From the NCBI RefSeq assembly GCF_030384885.1, contig NZ_CP128613.1: 64,000 nucleotides of DNA; one strand, written 5' to 3'. Below the pieces are notes generated by a model. The model saw nothing but the letters and a program-made list of their open reading frames with translations, was not told the origin of the DNA and ran no database searches. Shown in pieces: positions 17,573 through 59,915 of the stretch (within the stretch, counting starts at the first letter, position 1; each line of letters opens with the position of its first letter). The DNA is from Escherichia coli. GTDB lineage: Bacteria; Pseudomonadota; Gammaproteobacteria; Enterobacterales; Enterobacteriaceae. Position numbers and translations under genes: made by a program.

Positions 17573-17800
17573 ATGCCGGATGCGGCCTACGGTTCGGCAC
17601 AGACTTGTAGGCATGATAAAACGCGTCAAGCGTCGCATCAGGCATTGTGCGCCAACTGCCGGATGCGGCGTGAACGCCTTATCCGGCCTACGGTTCGGCA
17701 CAGACTTGTAGGCATGATAAGACGCGTCAGCGTCGCATCAGGCATTGTGCGTCGACTGCCGGATGCGGCGTGAACGCCTTATCCGGCTTACGAAGGGCAA
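17573..17800. repeat. REP/BIME cluster
   Basis: Two near-identical copies of a roughly 95-bp unit containing GCCGGATGCGGCGTGAACGCCTTATCCGGCCTAC palindromic elements. Confidence 0.8.
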
Positions 17801-25399: not shown

Positions 25400-25585
<186 letters not shown>

Positions 25586-25696: not shown

Positions 25697-25783
25697 GCGA
25701 AGGTGGCGGAATTGGTAGACGCGCTAGCTTCAGGTGTTAGTGTCCTTACGGACGTGGGGGTTCAAGTCCCCCCCCTCGCACCA
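25697..25783 (+). tRNA. leuQ: tRNA-Leu (CAG), copy 1
   Basis: 87-nt sequence GCGAAGGTGGCGGAATTGGTAGACGCGCTAGCTTCAGGTG...CGCACCA: long variable arm, CAG anticodon, encoded CCA. Confidence 0.93.
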
Positions 25784-25811
25784 AAAACCACGTTGATATT
25801 GCTCGCACTGG

Positions 25812-25898
25812 GCGAAGGTGGCGGAATTGGTAGACGCGCTAGCTTCAGGTGTTAGTGTTCTTACGGACGTGGGGGTTCAAGTCCCCCCCCTCGCACCA
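25812..25898 (+). tRNA. leuP: tRNA-Leu (CAG), copy 2, with one substitution in the variable arm
   Basis: Identical to copies 1 and 3 except GTGTTC in place of GTGTCC (C to T) in the variable-arm stem. Confidence 0.93.
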
Positions 25899-25931
25899 AA
25901 CGAGGCGATATCAAAAAAGTAAGATGACTGT

Positions 25932-26018
25932 GCGAAGGTGGCGGAATTGGTAGACGCGCTAGCTTCAGGTGTTAGTGTCCTTACGGACGTGGGGGTTCAA
26001 GTCCCCCCCCTCGCACCA
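25932..26018 (+). tRNA. leuV: tRNA-Leu (CAG), copy 3
   Basis: Identical to copy 1. Confidence 0.93.
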
Positions 26019-54830: not shown

Positions 54831-56420
54831 ATGAACAATAACGATCTGGTCGCGAAGCTGTGGAAGCTGTGCGACAACCTGCGCGATGGCGGCGTTTCCT
54901 ATCAAAACTACGTCAATGAACTCGCCTCGCTGCTGTTTTTGAAAATGTGTAAAGAAACCGGACAGGAAGCGGAATACCTGCCGGAAGGCTACCGCTGGGA
55001 TGACCTGAAATCCCGTATCGGCCAGGAGCAGTTGCAGTTCTACCGTAACCTGCTGGTACATCTGGGCGCCGACAATCAAAAGCTGGTGCAGGCAGTGTTC
55101 CAGAACGTCAACACCACCATTACCCAGCCGAAACAGTTGACCGAGCTGGTCAGCAATATGGATTCACTGGACTGGTACAACGGCGCGCACGGTAAGTCGC
55201 GCGATGACTTCGGCGATATGTACGAAGGGCTGTTGCAGAAGAACGCGAATGAAACCAAGTCTGGCGCGGGCCAGTACTTCACCCCGCGTCCGCTGATTAA
55301 AACCATTATTCATCTGCTGAAACCGCAGCCGCGTGAAGTGGTGCAGGACCCGGCGGCAGGTACGGCGGGCTTTTTGATTGAAGCCGACCGCTATGTTAAG
55401 TCGCAAACTAATGATCTGGACGACCTTGATGGCGACACGCAGGATTTCCAGATCCACCGCGCGTTTATCGGCCTCGAACTGGTGCCCGGCACCCGTCGTC
55501 TGGCACTGATGAACTGCCTGCTGCACGATATTGAAGGCAACCTCGACCACGGCGGCGCAATCCGTCTGGGCAACACCCTGGGCAGCGACGGTGAAAACCT
55601 GCCGAAAGCGCATATTGTCGCCACTAACCCGCCGTTTGGCAGCGCCGCAGGCACCAACATTACCCGCACCTTTGTTCACCCGACCAGCAACAAACAGTTG
55701 TGCTTTATGCAGCATATTATCGAAACGCTGCATCCCGGCGGTCGTGCGGCGGTCGTGGTGCCGGATAACGTACTGTTTGAAGGCGGCAAAGGCACCGACA
55801 TCCGTCGTGACCTGATGGATAAGTGTCATCTGCACACCATTCTGCGTCTGCCGACCGGTATTTTTTACGCGCAGGGCGTGAAAACCAACGTGCTGTTCTT
55901 TACCAAAGGGACGGTGGCGAATCCGAATCAGGATAAGAACTGTACCGACGACGTGTGGGTGTACGACCTGCGTACCAATATGCCGAGCTTCGGCAAGCGC
56001 ACGCCGTTTACCGACGAGCATTTGCAGCCGTTTGAGCGCGTGTATGGCGAAGACCCGCACGGTTTAAGCCCGCGCACTGAAGGGGAATGGAGTTTTAACG
56101 CCGAAGAGACGGAAGTTGCCGACAGCGAAGAGAACAAAAACACCGATCAGCATCTGGCCACCAGCCGCTGGCGCAAGTTCAGCCGCGAGTGGATCCGCAC
56201 CGTGAAATCCGATTCGCTGGATATCTCCTGGCTGAAAGATAAAGACAGCATCGACGCCGACAGCCTGCCGGAGCCGGATGTGTTAGCGGCAGAAGCGATG
56301 GGTGAACTGGTACAGGCATTGGGTGAACTGGATGCGCTGATGCGTGAACTGGGGGCGAGCGATGAGGCGGATGCACAGCGTCAGTTGCTGGAAGAAGCGT
56401 TTGGTGGGGTGAAAGAATGA
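54831..56420 (+). CDS. hsdM: Type I R-M N6-adenine DNA methyltransferase subunit HsdM
   Basis: 529-aa ORF with NPPF catalytic motif (IVATNPPFGSAAG) and SAM-binding region. Confidence 0.95.
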   Translation: MNNNDLVAKLWKLCDNLRDGGVSYQNYVNELASLLFLKMCKETGQEAEYLPEGYRWDDLKSRIGQEQLQFYRNLLVHLGADNQKLVQAVFQNVNTTITQPKQLTELVSNMDSLDWYNGAHGKSRDDFGDMYEGLLQKNANETKSGAGQYFTPRPLIKTIIHLLKPQPREVVQDPAAGTAGFLIEADRYVKSQTNDLDDLDGDTQDFQIHRAFIGLELVPGTRRLALMNCLLHDIEGNLDHGGAIRLGNTLGSDGENLPKAHIVATNPPFGSAAGTNITRTFVHPTSNKQLCFMQHIIETLHPGGRAAVVVPDNVLFEGGKGTDIRRDLMDKCHLHTILRLPTGIFYAQGVKTNVLFFTKGTVANPNQDKNCTDDVWVYDLRTNMPSFGKRTPFTDEHLQPFERVYGEDPHGLSPRTEGEWSFNAEETEVADSEENKNTDQHLATSRWRKFSREWIRTVKSDSLDISWLKDKDSIDADSLPEPDVLAAEAMGELVQALGELDALMRELGASDEADAQRQLLEEAFGGVKE

Positions 56421-57805
56421 GTTTCAACTCAACATCAAAAGAATTAATTGAGCAAAATATCAATGGGTTACTTTCAAGCCATGAGAGCTGGTTACGTATT
56501 CCAATGGATTCCGTAGCAAACATCACAAACGGTTTTGCTTTTAAGTCGGCAGAATTTAATAATCGTAAAGATGGTGTACCATTAATTAGAATTCGTGATG
56601 TTCTTAAAGGTAGTACATCGACTTATTACTCGGGGCAAATTCCTGAGGGATATTGGGTATATCCCGAAGACTTAATCGTGGGAATGGATGGTGATTTTAA
56701 TACAACTATATGGCGCTCGGAGCCCGCTCTGTTAAATCAACGAGTATGTAAAATCGAAGTTCAGGAAGACAAATACAATAAAAGATTTTTCTATCATGCC
56801 TTACCAGGATATTTATCCGCAATCAATGCAAATACGTCCTCGGTTACTGTAAAGCATCTTTCTTCCAGGACACTTCAAGATACCCTACTTCCGTTGCCAC
56901 CACTTGCCGAACAAAAAATCATCGCTGAAAAACTCGATACGCTGCTGGCGCAGGTAAACAGCACCAAAGCACGTCTTGAGCAAATCCCACAAAACCTGAA
57001 ACGTTTTCGTCAGGCGGTGCTTCATGTTGCAGTGAGCGGGAAATTAACTGAAAAATGGCGATTAGAAAATGCAACTTTAGAAAACTCATACGAATGGAAG
57101 GTGCAATCTTTATCTGATCTTGGTGTTTTAGCTCGAGGTAAATCTAAACATCGACCTAGAAACGATCCTCGCCTATTTGGGGATAAGTATCCATTTATTC
57201 AAACAGGTGAAGTTGCCAATAGTTCAGGAAGAATTAAAAGAGCAAATAAATTTTATAGTGAGTTTGGTTTATCACAAAGCAAGCTATTTCCAAAAGATAC
57301 CTTATGTATAACTATTGCTGCCAACATTGCGGATACAGCCATATTAGAGATTGAGGCATGTTTCCCGGACAGTGTCGTTGGTTTCATTTCTGATAAAGAT
57401 AAATCTCATGTATCCTTTGTGAAGTATCTAATTGATGTTAACAAAGATAATCTTGAAGCATTTGCACCAGCTACAGCACAAAAAAATATTAACTTAAAGG
57501 TTTTAAACGAACTTAAACTTCCTATTCCTGATATTAAAGAACAAGCCGAAATCGTTCGCCGCGTCGAGCAACTCTTCGCCTACGCCGACACCATAGAAAA
57601 ACAGGTCAACAACGCCCTGGCCCGCGTCAACAACCTGACGCAATCCATCCTGGCAAAAGCGTTCCGTGGTGAACTCACCGCCCAGTGGCGGGCCGAAAAC
57701 CCGGATTTGATCAGCGGAGAAAACAGCGCCGCCGCGTTGCTGGAAAAAATCAAAGCTGAACGCGCAGCCAGCGGGGGTAAAAAAGCCTCACGTAAAAAAT
57801 CCTGA
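56417..57805 (+). CDS. hsdS: Type I R-M specificity subunit HsdS (type IA family) with non-K-12 target-recognition domains
   Basis: 462-aa ORF overlapping the hsdM stop. Central (LPPLAEQKIIAEKLDTLLAQV...) and C-terminal (EQAEIVRRVEQLFAYADTIEKQVNNALARVNNLTQSILAKAFRGELTAQWR...) conserved regions are type IA-like; both variable domains differ from my recollection of the K-12 protein. Confidence 0.85.
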   Translation: MSFNSTSKELIEQNINGLLSSHESWLRIPMDSVANITNGFAFKSAEFNNRKDGVPLIRIRDVLKGSTSTYYSGQIPEGYWVYPEDLIVGMDGDFNTTIWRSEPALLNQRVCKIEVQEDKYNKRFFYHALPGYLSAINANTSSVTVKHLSSRTLQDTLLPLPPLAEQKIIAEKLDTLLAQVNSTKARLEQIPQNLKRFRQAVLHVAVSGKLTEKWRLENATLENSYEWKVQSLSDLGVLARGKSKHRPRNDPRLFGDKYPFIQTGEVANSSGRIKRANKFYSEFGLSQSKLFPKDTLCITIAANIADTAILEIEACFPDSVVGFISDKDKSHVSFVKYLIDVNKDNLEAFAPATAQKNINLKVLNELKLPIPDIKEQAEIVRRVEQLFAYADTIEKQVNNALARVNNLTQSILAKAFRGELTAQWRAENPDLISGENSAAALLEKIKAERAASGGKKASRKKS

Positions 57806-57817
57806 ACATTATTTTCT

Positions 57818-57842
57818 GGCGCACCTTTCCGGTGCGCTTTTT
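57818..57842 (+). terminator. Rho-independent terminator after hsdS
   Basis: GGCGCACC-TTTCC-GGTGCGC followed by TTTTT. Confidence 0.7.
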
Positions 57843-57937
57843 ATTATTTCACGCCAATCATAACCCACATAAATATATTTAAATCATTCCAGAAATTGCC
57901 CATTTTATTCTATTTTTAGCTGGACTTTCCCCATATT

Positions 57938-57957
57938 TACTGATGATATATCCAGGT
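57938..57957. promoter_or_regulatory. LexA (SOS) box upstream of symE
   Basis: TACTGATGATATATCCAGGT has the CTG-N10-CAG form of the LexA consensus (TACTGTATATATATACAGTA), about 80 bp upstream of the symE ATG. Confidence 0.5.
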
Positions 57958-57961
57958 ATTT

Positions 57962-58038
57962 AGCGCGGTGCGGATGTGCGCCAACACACCCGCACCGCTA
58001 ATCACAATCCCTATTTCTAAGGAATAGTAATCATGACT
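57962..58038 (-). ncRNA. symR: SymR cis-antisense sRNA (approximate bounds)
   Basis: On the minus strand a TAGAAT -10-like hexamer lies just inside the symE 5' end with a predicted start near 58038; a perfect 9-bp inverted repeat (GCGGTGCGG...CCGCACCGC, 57963-57997) sits at the expected 3' end. Consistent with the known ~77-nt SymR overlapping the symE start. Confidence 0.4.
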
Positions 58039-58374
58039 GACACGCATTCTATTGCACAACCGTTCGAAGCAGAAGTCTCCCCGGCAAATAACCGTCAATT
58101 AACCGTGAGTTATGCGAGTCGCTACCCGGATTACAGCCGTATTCCCGCCATCACCCTGAAAGGTCAGTGGCTGGAAGCCGCCGGTTTTGCCACCGGCACG
58201 GCGGTAGATGTCAAAGTGATGGAAGGCTGTATTGTCCTCACCGCCCAACCACCCGCCCCCGAAGAGAGCGAACTGATGCAGTCACTGCGCCAGGTGTGCA
58301 AACTGTCAGCGCGTAAACAAAAGCAGGTGAAGGAGTTTATTGGGGTGATTGCCGGTAAACAGAAAGTCGCGTAA
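58033..58374 (+). CDS. symE: SOS-induced type I toxin SymE (AbrB/SpoVT-fold, promotes RNA cleavage)
   Basis: 113-aa [37 protein letters not shown]...; located between hsdS and mcrB as in K-12. Confidence 0.88.
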
Positions 58375-58535
58375 CAGCGTTTACTCCCGGTTAACCACCG
58401 GGAGCCTTCCACTGACTCAATAGAAACTTTCCCCCTCAGTAAATATTTACCAGTCTGATTTTGCAGTAAAAATCTATTGTTTCAGTACGTTGCGAAAGCG
58501 ATAATAGAGGCTTAGCAATGAGGAAGGCATATCTT

Positions 58536-59915
58536 ATGGAATCTATTCAACCCTGGATTGAAAAATTTATTAAGCAAGCACAGCAACAACGTTCGCAATC
58601 CACTAAAGATTATCCAACGTCTTACCGTAACCTGCGAGTAAAATTGAGTTTCGGTTATGGTAATTTTACGTCTATTCCCTGGTTTGCATTTCTTGGAGAA
58701 GGTCAGGAAGCTTCTAACGGTATATATCCCGTTATTCTCTATTATAAAGATTTTGATGAGTTGGTTTTGGCTTATGGTATAAGCGACACGAATGAACCAC
58801 ATGCCCAATGGCAGTTCTCTTCAGACATACCTAAAACAATCGCAGAGTATTTCCAGGCAACTTCAGGTGTATATCCTAAAAAATACGGACAGTCCTATTA
58901 CGCCTGTTCCCAAAAAGTCTCACAGGGTCTTGATTATACCCGGTTTGCCTCCATGCTGGACAACATAATCAACGACTATAAATTAATATTTAATTCTGGC
59001 AAGAGTGTTATTCCACCTATGTCAAAAACTGAATCATACTGTCTGGAAGATGCGTTAAATGATTTGTTTATCCCTGAAACCACGATAGAGACGATACTCA
59101 AACGATTAACCATCAAAAAAAATATTATCCTCCAGGGGCCGCCCGGCGTTGGAAAAACCTTTGTTGCACGCCGTCTGGCTTACTTGCTGACAGGGGAAAA
59201 GGCTCCGCAACGCGTCAATATGGTTCAGTTCCATCAATCTTATAGCTATGAGGATTTTATACAGGGCTATCGTCCGAATGGTGTCGGCTTCCGACGTAAA
59301 GACGGTATATTTTACAATTTTTGTCAGCAAGCTAAAGAGCAGCCAGAGAAAAAGTATGTTTTTATTATAGATGAAATCAATCGTGCCAATCTCAGTAAAG
59401 TATTTGGCGAAGTGATGATGTTAATGGAACATGATAAACGAGGTGAAAACTGGTCTGTTCCCTTAACCTACTCCGAAAACGATGAAGAACGATTCTATGT
59501 TCCGGAGAATGTTTATATTATCGGTTTAATGAATACTGCCGATCGCTCTCTGGCCGTTGTTGATTATGCCCTGCGCAGACGATTTTCTTTCATAGATATT
59601 GAGCCAGGTTTTGATACGCCACAGTTCCGGAATTTTTTACTGAATAAAAAAGCAGAACCTTCATTTGTTGAATCTTTATGCCAAACAATGAACGAGTTAA
59701 ACCAGGAAATCAGCAAAGAGGCCACTATCCTTGGGAAAGGATTCCGCATTGGGCATAGTTACTTCTGCTCCGGGTTGGAAGATGGCACATCTCCTGATAC
59801 GCAATGGCTTAAGGAAATTGTGATGACGGATATCGCCCCTTTACTCGAAGAATATTTCTTTGATGATCCCTATAAACAACAGATATGGACCGACAAATTA
59901 TTAGGTGACTCATAG
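58536..59915 (+). CDS. mcrB: McrB, GTP-dependent 5-methylcytosine-specific restriction subunit (AAA+)
   Basis: 459 aa from MESIQPWIEKFIKQAQQQRS...; Walker A GPPGVGKT; AT-rich coding sequence. Confidence 0.93.
   Translation: MESIQPWIEKFIKQAQQQRSQSTKDYPTSYRNLRVKLSFGYGNFTSIPWFAFLGEGQEASNGIYPVILYYKDFDELVLAYGISDTNEPHAQWQFSSDIPKTIAEYFQATSGVYPKKYGQSYYACSQKVSQGLDYTRFASMLDNIINDYKLIFNSGKSVIPPMSKTESYCLEDALNDLFIPETTIETILKRLTIKKNIILQGPPGVGKTFVARRLAYLLTGEKAPQRVNMVQFHQSYSYEDFIQGYRPNGVGFRRKDGIFYNFCQQAKEQPEKKYVFIIDEINRANLSKVFGEVMMLMEHDKRGENWSVPLTYSENDEERFYVPENVYIIGLMNTADRSLAVVDYALRRRFSFIDIEPGFDTPQFRNFLLNKKAEPSFVESLCQTMNELNQEISKEATILGKGFRIGHSYFCSGLEDGTSPDTQWLKEIVMTDIAPLLEEYFFDDPYKQQIWTDKLLGDS

Follow-up and report, generated by a model that had tools for sequence, protein, structure and literature searches.

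The stretch of Escherichia coli DNA analysed here, 64 kb in length and referred to throughout as the window, carries an hsdS-type open reading frame at 56417..57805, symE at 58033..58374, and McrB- and McrC-type open reading frames that begin at 58518 and 59915, all of them on the + strand. This order is that of the immigration-control region of K-12, for which the RefSeq annotation gives mcrC, mcrB, symE, the ncRNA symR and hsdS. The 712-bp interval between hsdS and mcrB is 100% identical to that of E. coli 2013C-4282 and about 96.6% identical to that of K-12-type strains, and over the intergenic region and the 5′ part of symE the window and K-12 agree at 98% of positions. In the E. coli loci that we compared, a type I restriction-modification gene (hsdS or hsdR) immediately precedes symE in every case, and its association with restriction-modification genes and mobile islands was already remarked by Kawano et al. 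(PMC1891008).

The symE coding sequence, recognised from the list of open reading frames, from its identity to K-12 and from a Pfam match, specifies a protein of 113 aa that is identical to K-12 SymE at 107 of 113 residues (95%). Its product scores 76.7 bits against the Pfam model PF08845 (SymE_toxin), for which the cut-off is 29, and with its reading frame intact it belongs to this family. Nine nucleotides before the ATG, the sequence reads AAGGA (58019..58023, + strand), the apparent Shine-Dalgarno element, where K-12 carries GGAG. This element is covered by the antisense RNA SymR, and its occlusion by SymR is the model put forward for K-12 (PMC1891008, PMC4147584).

SymR itself, a 77-nt RNA of the type I antitoxin class, occupies 57962..58038 on the − strand. 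It is recognised by the Rfam covariance model RF01809 at 93.1 bits, against a gathering threshold of 61, over model positions 1-77 (E = 2.2e-18), and it is the top Rfam match of the whole window. The 5′ end of SymR (58038) corresponds to the sixth base of the symE reading frame, 3 nt past the ATG (58033), such that the two genes overlap by 6 nt; the annotation of K-12 shows the same ends (symR 4579835..4579911, symE 4579499..4579840). The other Rfam matches above gathering threshold are unrelated to symE/SymR, and comprise three naRNA4 (REP-type) elements among 17610-17788 and 25475-25557 (− strand) and three tandem tRNA genes with identical scores at 25697-26015 (+ strand).

We conclude with high confidence that this region is the symE/SymR regulatory module of E. 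coli and that it is intact in the strain from which the window derives. The earlier note on this DNA had come to the same view from the match to the described SymR/SymE regulation, and its claim of intactness is upheld by a full-length SymR above threshold, the K-12 geometry, a symR promoter identical to that of K-12 and an intact symE reading frame. The match to K-12 requires some qualification: the promoter is indeed identical, but K-12 and the window disagree at 9 of the 77 SymR positions and at one base of the LexA box. PGAP-annotated E. coli strains list only an ‘endoribonuclease SymE’ and omit symR, whereas the K-12 RefSeq record has a ‘nucleoid-associated protein SymE’ plus the symR ncRNA (b4347/b4625). 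The module is thus confirmed as intact in a strain for which annotation of the PGAP type still lists only symE, and as an endoribonuclease.

Occurrence within E. coli and across genera

Among 5426 complete E. coli genomes, the 199-bp block at 57902-58100 is present in 2869, with identities of 91-100% to the window. Identity over this block is at least 99% in only seven of these 2869 symE-carrying genomes, and among the matches listed 2013C-4282 is the only one at 100%. In many strains the alignment begins only at 57902, the left boundary of the conserved module; homology between strains begins about 96 nt past the hsdS stop codon. When 12 E. coli alleles are compared, there is almost no variation in the CTG and CAG triplets of the LexA box, in the symR −10, around the +1 or in either hairpin stem, and the most variable part is the loop of the 5′ hairpin, around the symE Shine-Dalgarno element, which is hypervariable. 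As judged from these alleles, the differences between the window and K-12 in SymR are common natural variants.

To cover other genera, species-representative genomes were scanned once with a DNA pattern built from the Rfam-conserved SymR positions 12-43. The scan returned 38 loci, 37 of them usable, from Escherichia, Citrobacter, Enterobacter, Klebsiella, Raoultella, Kluyvera, Leclercia, Lelliottia, Kosakonia, Pseudocitrobacter, Silvania and Pantoea; the LexA box was counted over 38 loci, i.e., these 37 and the window. The search pattern placed no constraint on the LexA box, the −10 or the 3′ hairpin. All 37 usable loci have ATG-ACT opposite SymR positions 1-6, a −10 at the equivalent place, and a symE-like reading frame, usually of 95-115 aa, a few being shorter through an early stop codon or the end of the extracted segment.

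Truncated symE frames accompanied by a recognisable SymR occur in Pseudocitrobacter vendiensis (30 aa), Ca. Pantoea persica (42 aa) and Leclercia adecarboxylata (83 aa), and a good LexA box is still present at the first and last of these. These loci are apparent symE pseudogenes in which the antisense gene is still in place. Two diverged copies of symE/SymR were encountered in Raoultella planticola, where both lie on one contig, and in Ca. Pantoea gossypiicola; the paired copies differ in the sequence of the 3′ hairpin and in the type of LexA box. A further variant of the LexA box reads ATATGTCCAG. Two contigs from metagenome-assembled genomes labelled Bacillota (JAEWTL010000091.1 and JAEYGZ010000044.1) contain an E. 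coli-type module with a 113-aa SymE whose N-terminus is almost that of the window, and are probably contaminated or mis-binned.

The symR promoter inside symE

SymR was described in K-12 as a 77-nt RNA whose promoter resides within the symE reading frame (Kawano 2007, PMC1891008). In the window, the −10 hexamer TAGAAT runs from 58051 to 58046 on the − strand (ATTCTA on the + strand), inside symE codons 5-7; it matches TATAAT at five of six bases and is situated 7 nt upstream of the SymR +1 (58038). A silent change of symE from CATTCT to CACTCC abolished SymR in K-12 and raised SymE about 7-fold (Kawano 2007, PMC1891008). CATTCT sits at 58045-58050 of the window, where this mutation would alter TAGAAT at its second and fifth bases (positions 2 and 5). 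From 58033 to 58097, which encompasses the symR promoter region, the window and K-12 are identical base for base. The earlier proposal of a TAGAAT element on the opposite strand, directing an antisense start a few nucleotides inside symE, is therefore borne out, in that the element is the K-12 one and stands at the experimentally defined position.

A weak candidate for the −35, TTCTGC (58069..58074, − strand), precedes the −10 with a spacer of exactly 17 nt and matches TTGACA at just two of six positions. Because the −35 is poor, a consensus sigma-70 scan of 57700-58500, which called zero promoters on either strand, is silent at symR, and this negative result is uninformative for a promoter whose −10 has been defined experimentally in K-12.

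Across genera, TAGAAT or TACAAT is present in 35 of the 36 distinct loci, though the residues encoded there alternate between His-Ser and Asp-Cys. Entropy at third codon positions is near zero at symE codons 5-8, which contain the −10, versus 1-1.9 bits in neighbouring codons, and falls to 0.18 at codons 13-14, the site of the candidate −35, where 32 of 36 distinct loci have TTCTGG or TTCTGC. Because synonymous sites of symE are frozen beneath both the −10 and the candidate −35, selection must be maintaining the symR promoter, and has held it in place across about 12 genera.

Structure and 3′ end of SymR

SymR folds into two hairpins with a minimum free energy of −41.4 kcal/mol (z = −7.2). The 5′ stem-loop (58000..58038, − strand; positions 1-39 of the Rfam structure) is complementary to the symE Shine-Dalgarno element and start codon, and forms 13 of the 15 model pairs in the window allele and all 15 in K-12, the two mismatched pairs, A11.G29 and C17.A23, being absent from K-12. 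Eight of the nine positions at which SymR differs from K-12 fall in this 5′ hairpin and Shine-Dalgarno region. The remaining difference turns the A44.C71 mismatch of K-12 into a G-C pair, and so produces an uninterrupted 3′ stem.

This 3′ stem-loop, recognised from an inverted repeat, from folding and from covariation, spans 57965..57998 on the − strand and has, in the SymR sense, 15 bp of which 10 are G-C, closed by the 4-nt loop UGGC. Its arms are perfect over 9 bp (57965-57973 and 57990-57998) and 93% complementary when extended to 14 nt. The perfect 9-bp-arm repeat that the earlier note had placed at 57963-57997 is thus real and lies at the SymR 3′ end, with its coordinates displaced by 1-2 nt. 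SymR terminates at 57962, 3 nt beyond the stem. The 8-nt tip of the hairpin (57979-57986) reads GTTGGCGC in the SymR sense in both the window and K-12, and its reverse complement, GCGCCAAC, is found in E. coli ST131, in Enterobacter sp. Bisph1 and in one Raoultella metagenome-assembled genome, which looks like recurrent inversion of the tip with preservation of the structure.

The hairpin had been described as terminator-like, and this description is correct insofar as it marks the SymR 3′ end, but neither the window nor any of the 38 loci has a run of T after it. Of the two features of an intrinsic terminator, the GC-rich stem-loop is present and the U-rich tract is absent, the tail reading GCU AAAUACCU. 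It is therefore unlikely that symR transcription is halted by true Rho-independent termination at this hairpin (57965-57998). A strong GC-rich stem of 15 bp with a 4-nt loop, located precisely at the annotated 3′ end and conserved with covariation, does speak for a terminator; however, what follows the stem is GCU and then AAAUACCUGG, without a U-tract, and a terminator scan that calls the hsdS terminator at 57818-57838, only 130 bp away, passes over the SymR hairpin. Moreover, the first 8 nt past the SymR 3′ end hold just 0-3 T in 38 of 38 loci, and there is instead a conserved AAATA (SymR sense; window position 57954-57961). The hairpin is thus not a canonical U-tract terminator, and is most safely read as a structural and stability element of the SymR 3′ end.

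A rather doubtful, though conceivable, extension is that the 3′ hairpin has no part in termination, and that polymerase coming from symR continues into the LexA box and on across the symE promoter. The 77-nt RNA would then be produced by cleavage at AAAUA and exonucleolytic trimming back to the 3′ hairpin, and convergent transcription would add to the known trans repression a component in cis, by occluding PsymE or through collisions there, and perhaps by displacing LexA. If true, such read-through could explain some of the increase, roughly 3-fold, that symE mRNA shows in the −10 mutant.

We also considered, and rejected, a role of bound LexA as a roadblock that sets the SymR 3′ end. Just 4 nt separate this end (57962) from the edge of the LexA 20-mer (57957), and a polymerase stalled against bound LexA has its active site, given the footprint of the enzyme, about 13-15 nt upstream. 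The roadblock fails because the stalled active site would fall inside the hairpin. In addition, the level of SymR in K-12 is unchanged upon SOS induction (PMC1891008), which likewise speaks against it.

With no U-tract at any of the loci, the 3′ end of this very stable RNA may arise either by termination at the hairpin or by trimming of a longer transcript back to it. In K-12, SymR showed no decay 60 min after rifampicin, and its stability was credited to ‘two strong hairpins’ (PMC1891008).

Selection on the antisense strand

Across 39 distinct sequences, the 3′ helix has compensatory changes at 8 of 14 pairs, with 97.4% of cells paired, and pairing falls to 20-50% in controls in which the register is slid. 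The extra pair 44-71 also covaries, being A-U in 16 sequences, G-C in 10, G-U in 10 and A.C in 3.

Because any helix in a cis-antisense pair exists on both strands, the conserved hairpins might serve chiefly in the mRNA (+ strand), giving structure to the symE 5′ UTR, for example to sequester the Shine-Dalgarno element or to stabilise the message, with the structure of the antisense RNA as a by-product. The mRNA strand does fold significantly (−29.8 kcal/mol, z = −4.2), with the Shine-Dalgarno element inside a small hairpin. Nevertheless, we consider this explanation very unlikely, for the fold in the SymR sense, at the energy and z-score given above, is far more stable, and pairing consistently favours SymR: 97.1% of the 3′ helix is paired in the SymR sense versus 84.1% on the mRNA strand, and 88.5% versus 72.0% of the 5′ helix. 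The SymR strand pairs better because many of its pairs are G-U, and a G-U pair in SymR corresponds to an A.C mismatch in the mRNA. This asymmetry in pairing, along with the folding energies, indicates that selection acts on the antisense RNA.

The LexA box and a candidate symE promoter

Upstream of symE, at 57938..57957 (strand not assigned), is the LexA (SOS) box TACTGATGATATATCCAGGT, which shares 19 of 20 bases with the symE/yjiW box of K-12. Its CTG-N10-CAG core, CTGATGATATATCCAG, occupies 57940..57955, 78 nt upstream of the symE ATG. The K-12 box was reported as a LexA site by Fernandez de Henestrosa (2000), as cited in PMC1891008, and it has a heterology index (HI) of 7.9 and LexA-dependent expression (PMC11228462).

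The earlier note had based this box on the CTG-N10-CAG pattern, which by itself is uninformative, occurring 26 times in the 64-kb window versus 13.9 expected. The box is nevertheless present by the more exacting measure that the note had named, i.e., a position weight matrix, here symmetrised and derived from 18 published operators (Table 4 of PMC3009722) with symE excluded. Over the entire 64 kb, the site at 57938..57957 ranks first, with 13.65 bits. For comparison, the leave-one-out scores of validated weak operators are 6.6 for polB, 13.5 for dinB, 14.7 for dinG and 15.9 for uvrD. Of dinucleotide-shuffled versions of the full 64 kb, 18% contain a site of at least 13.65 bits, a rate of 0.195 such sites per 64 kb or about 3e-4 per promoter region of 100 bp. 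The runner-up, TACTGAATAAAAAAGCAGAA (59638-59657, 11.2 bits), lies inside mcrB, is within the range of shuffled sequences and probably arose by chance.

The score is thus modest and at the weak end of validated operators, and what makes this a credible LexA site is its position, its conservation and its identity to K-12. The box is placed identically in 35 of the 38 loci, as a CTG-N10-CAG that ends 6-12 nt from the SymR 3′ end, where the chance expectation, from the background frequency in the same loci, is 0.011 per locus. It is very unlikely that the one difference from K-12, a C in place of A before CAG, weakens or inactivates the site in this strain: it does cost 1.4 bits relative to the K-12 version (…ATACAGGT, 15.07 bits), leaving a score at the foot of the validated range for a pattern whose bare form is frequent in the window, but 7 of the 18 operators used for the matrix, uvrB, recN, ruvA and dinI among them, also have C here, as do 11 of 12 sampled E. 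coli alleles, with K-12 as the outlier, and the position of the box is kept across genera. The K-12 LexA box is, in other words, the minority allele.

Conserved spacing also points to a promoter for symE. Of the 38 loci, drawn from about 12 genera, 31 carry TGGACT, the candidate −35 (57921..57926, + strand, in the window), and from it to the CTG of the downstream LexA box the distance is 12-13 nt in every case. Although the sigma-70 scan calls no promoter here, we infer that the symE promoter consists of TGGACT, a 17-nt spacer and TGATAT (57944-57949), with the TG of the LexA box as a possible extended −10. In this arrangement the operator would cover the symE −10, and transcription would start near 57956-57958, with SymR spanning nearly the whole 5′ UTR. 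Another pairing, TTTACT-16-TATTTA (57935-57962), is disfavoured because insertions of 1-6 nt between the box and TATTTAG in other genera stretch its spacer to as much as 22 nt, whereas the distance from TGGACT to the box stays at 12-13 nt.

Discussion

The elements of the symE/SymR module are present in the window, in their proper positions, intact and conserved, and both the structure of the antisense RNA and its promoter are under selection. The system is already known, and the window holds a common natural allelic form of it that has little import beyond annotation.

How the module operates has been shown for K-12, in which LexA represses symE transcription and Lon degrades SymE (PMC1891008, PMC4147584). 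There, SymR is constitutive and in about 10-fold excess, and its repression of symE is mostly translational, with an effect of about 3-fold on the mRNA level (PMC1891008); this repression needs neither RNase III nor Hfq, and LexA, SymR and Lon repress SymE additively (PMC1891008). Given the near-identity of the two regions, LexA repression, SymR expression and translational repression would be expected to carry over to the present strain.

By analogy, symE would be controlled at two levels from these roughly 150 bp, as part of an SOS-controlled pair resembling a type I toxin-antitoxin system. LexA at 57938-57957, overlapping or abutting the symE promoter, would keep transcription off until DNA damage triggers LexA cleavage. 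On the opposite strand, a constitutive promoter within symE codons 5-14 would fire from 58038 to yield the 77-nt SymR, a stable RNA with perfect complementarity to the 5′ UTR of symE, its Shine-Dalgarno element and the first 6 nt of its reading frame. Pairing of SymR with the symE mRNA would act chiefly by keeping ribosomes from binding, and to a lesser degree through the stability of the mRNA, and the 3′ stem-loop would define and protect the mature end of SymR, adding to its unusual stability. The view of SymE as an RNA-cleaving toxin has been challenged by a report that it binds DNA and condenses the nucleoid (Thompson 2022, summarised in PMC11894785), and ‘toxin-antitoxin’ may be a loose label for symE/SymR.

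The closest known system is K-12 symE/symR itself (yjiW/RyjC; Kawano, Aravind and Storz 2007; RF01809), with which the window shares the placement between hsdS and mcrB, the two-hairpin SymR and the site of the LexA box, and from which it differs in the Shine-Dalgarno element (AAGGA and not GGAG) and in the C, not A, before CAG in the LexA box. Like tisB/istR-1 and dinQ/agrB, symE/SymR combines control of the toxin gene through a LexA box with a constitutive small RNA that blocks translation of the toxin. However, SymR is a true cis-antisense RNA lying over the Shine-Dalgarno element and AUG, unlike the divergently encoded IstR-1 and AgrB, whose complementarity to their targets is limited; and SymE is a soluble protein of 113 aa with an AbrB/MazE fold, whereas the toxins of these two systems are small membrane peptides. 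The stability of SymR and the instability of the SymE protein, a substrate of Lon, reverse the usual arrangement (PMC1891008, PMC4147584). With plasmid antisense control of the hok/sok type, the module has in common a cis antisense RNA whose promoter is inside or opposite the 5′ region of its target and which represses translation, but Sok is unstable and acts via cleavage by RNase III, whereas SymR is stable and independent of both RNase III and Hfq.
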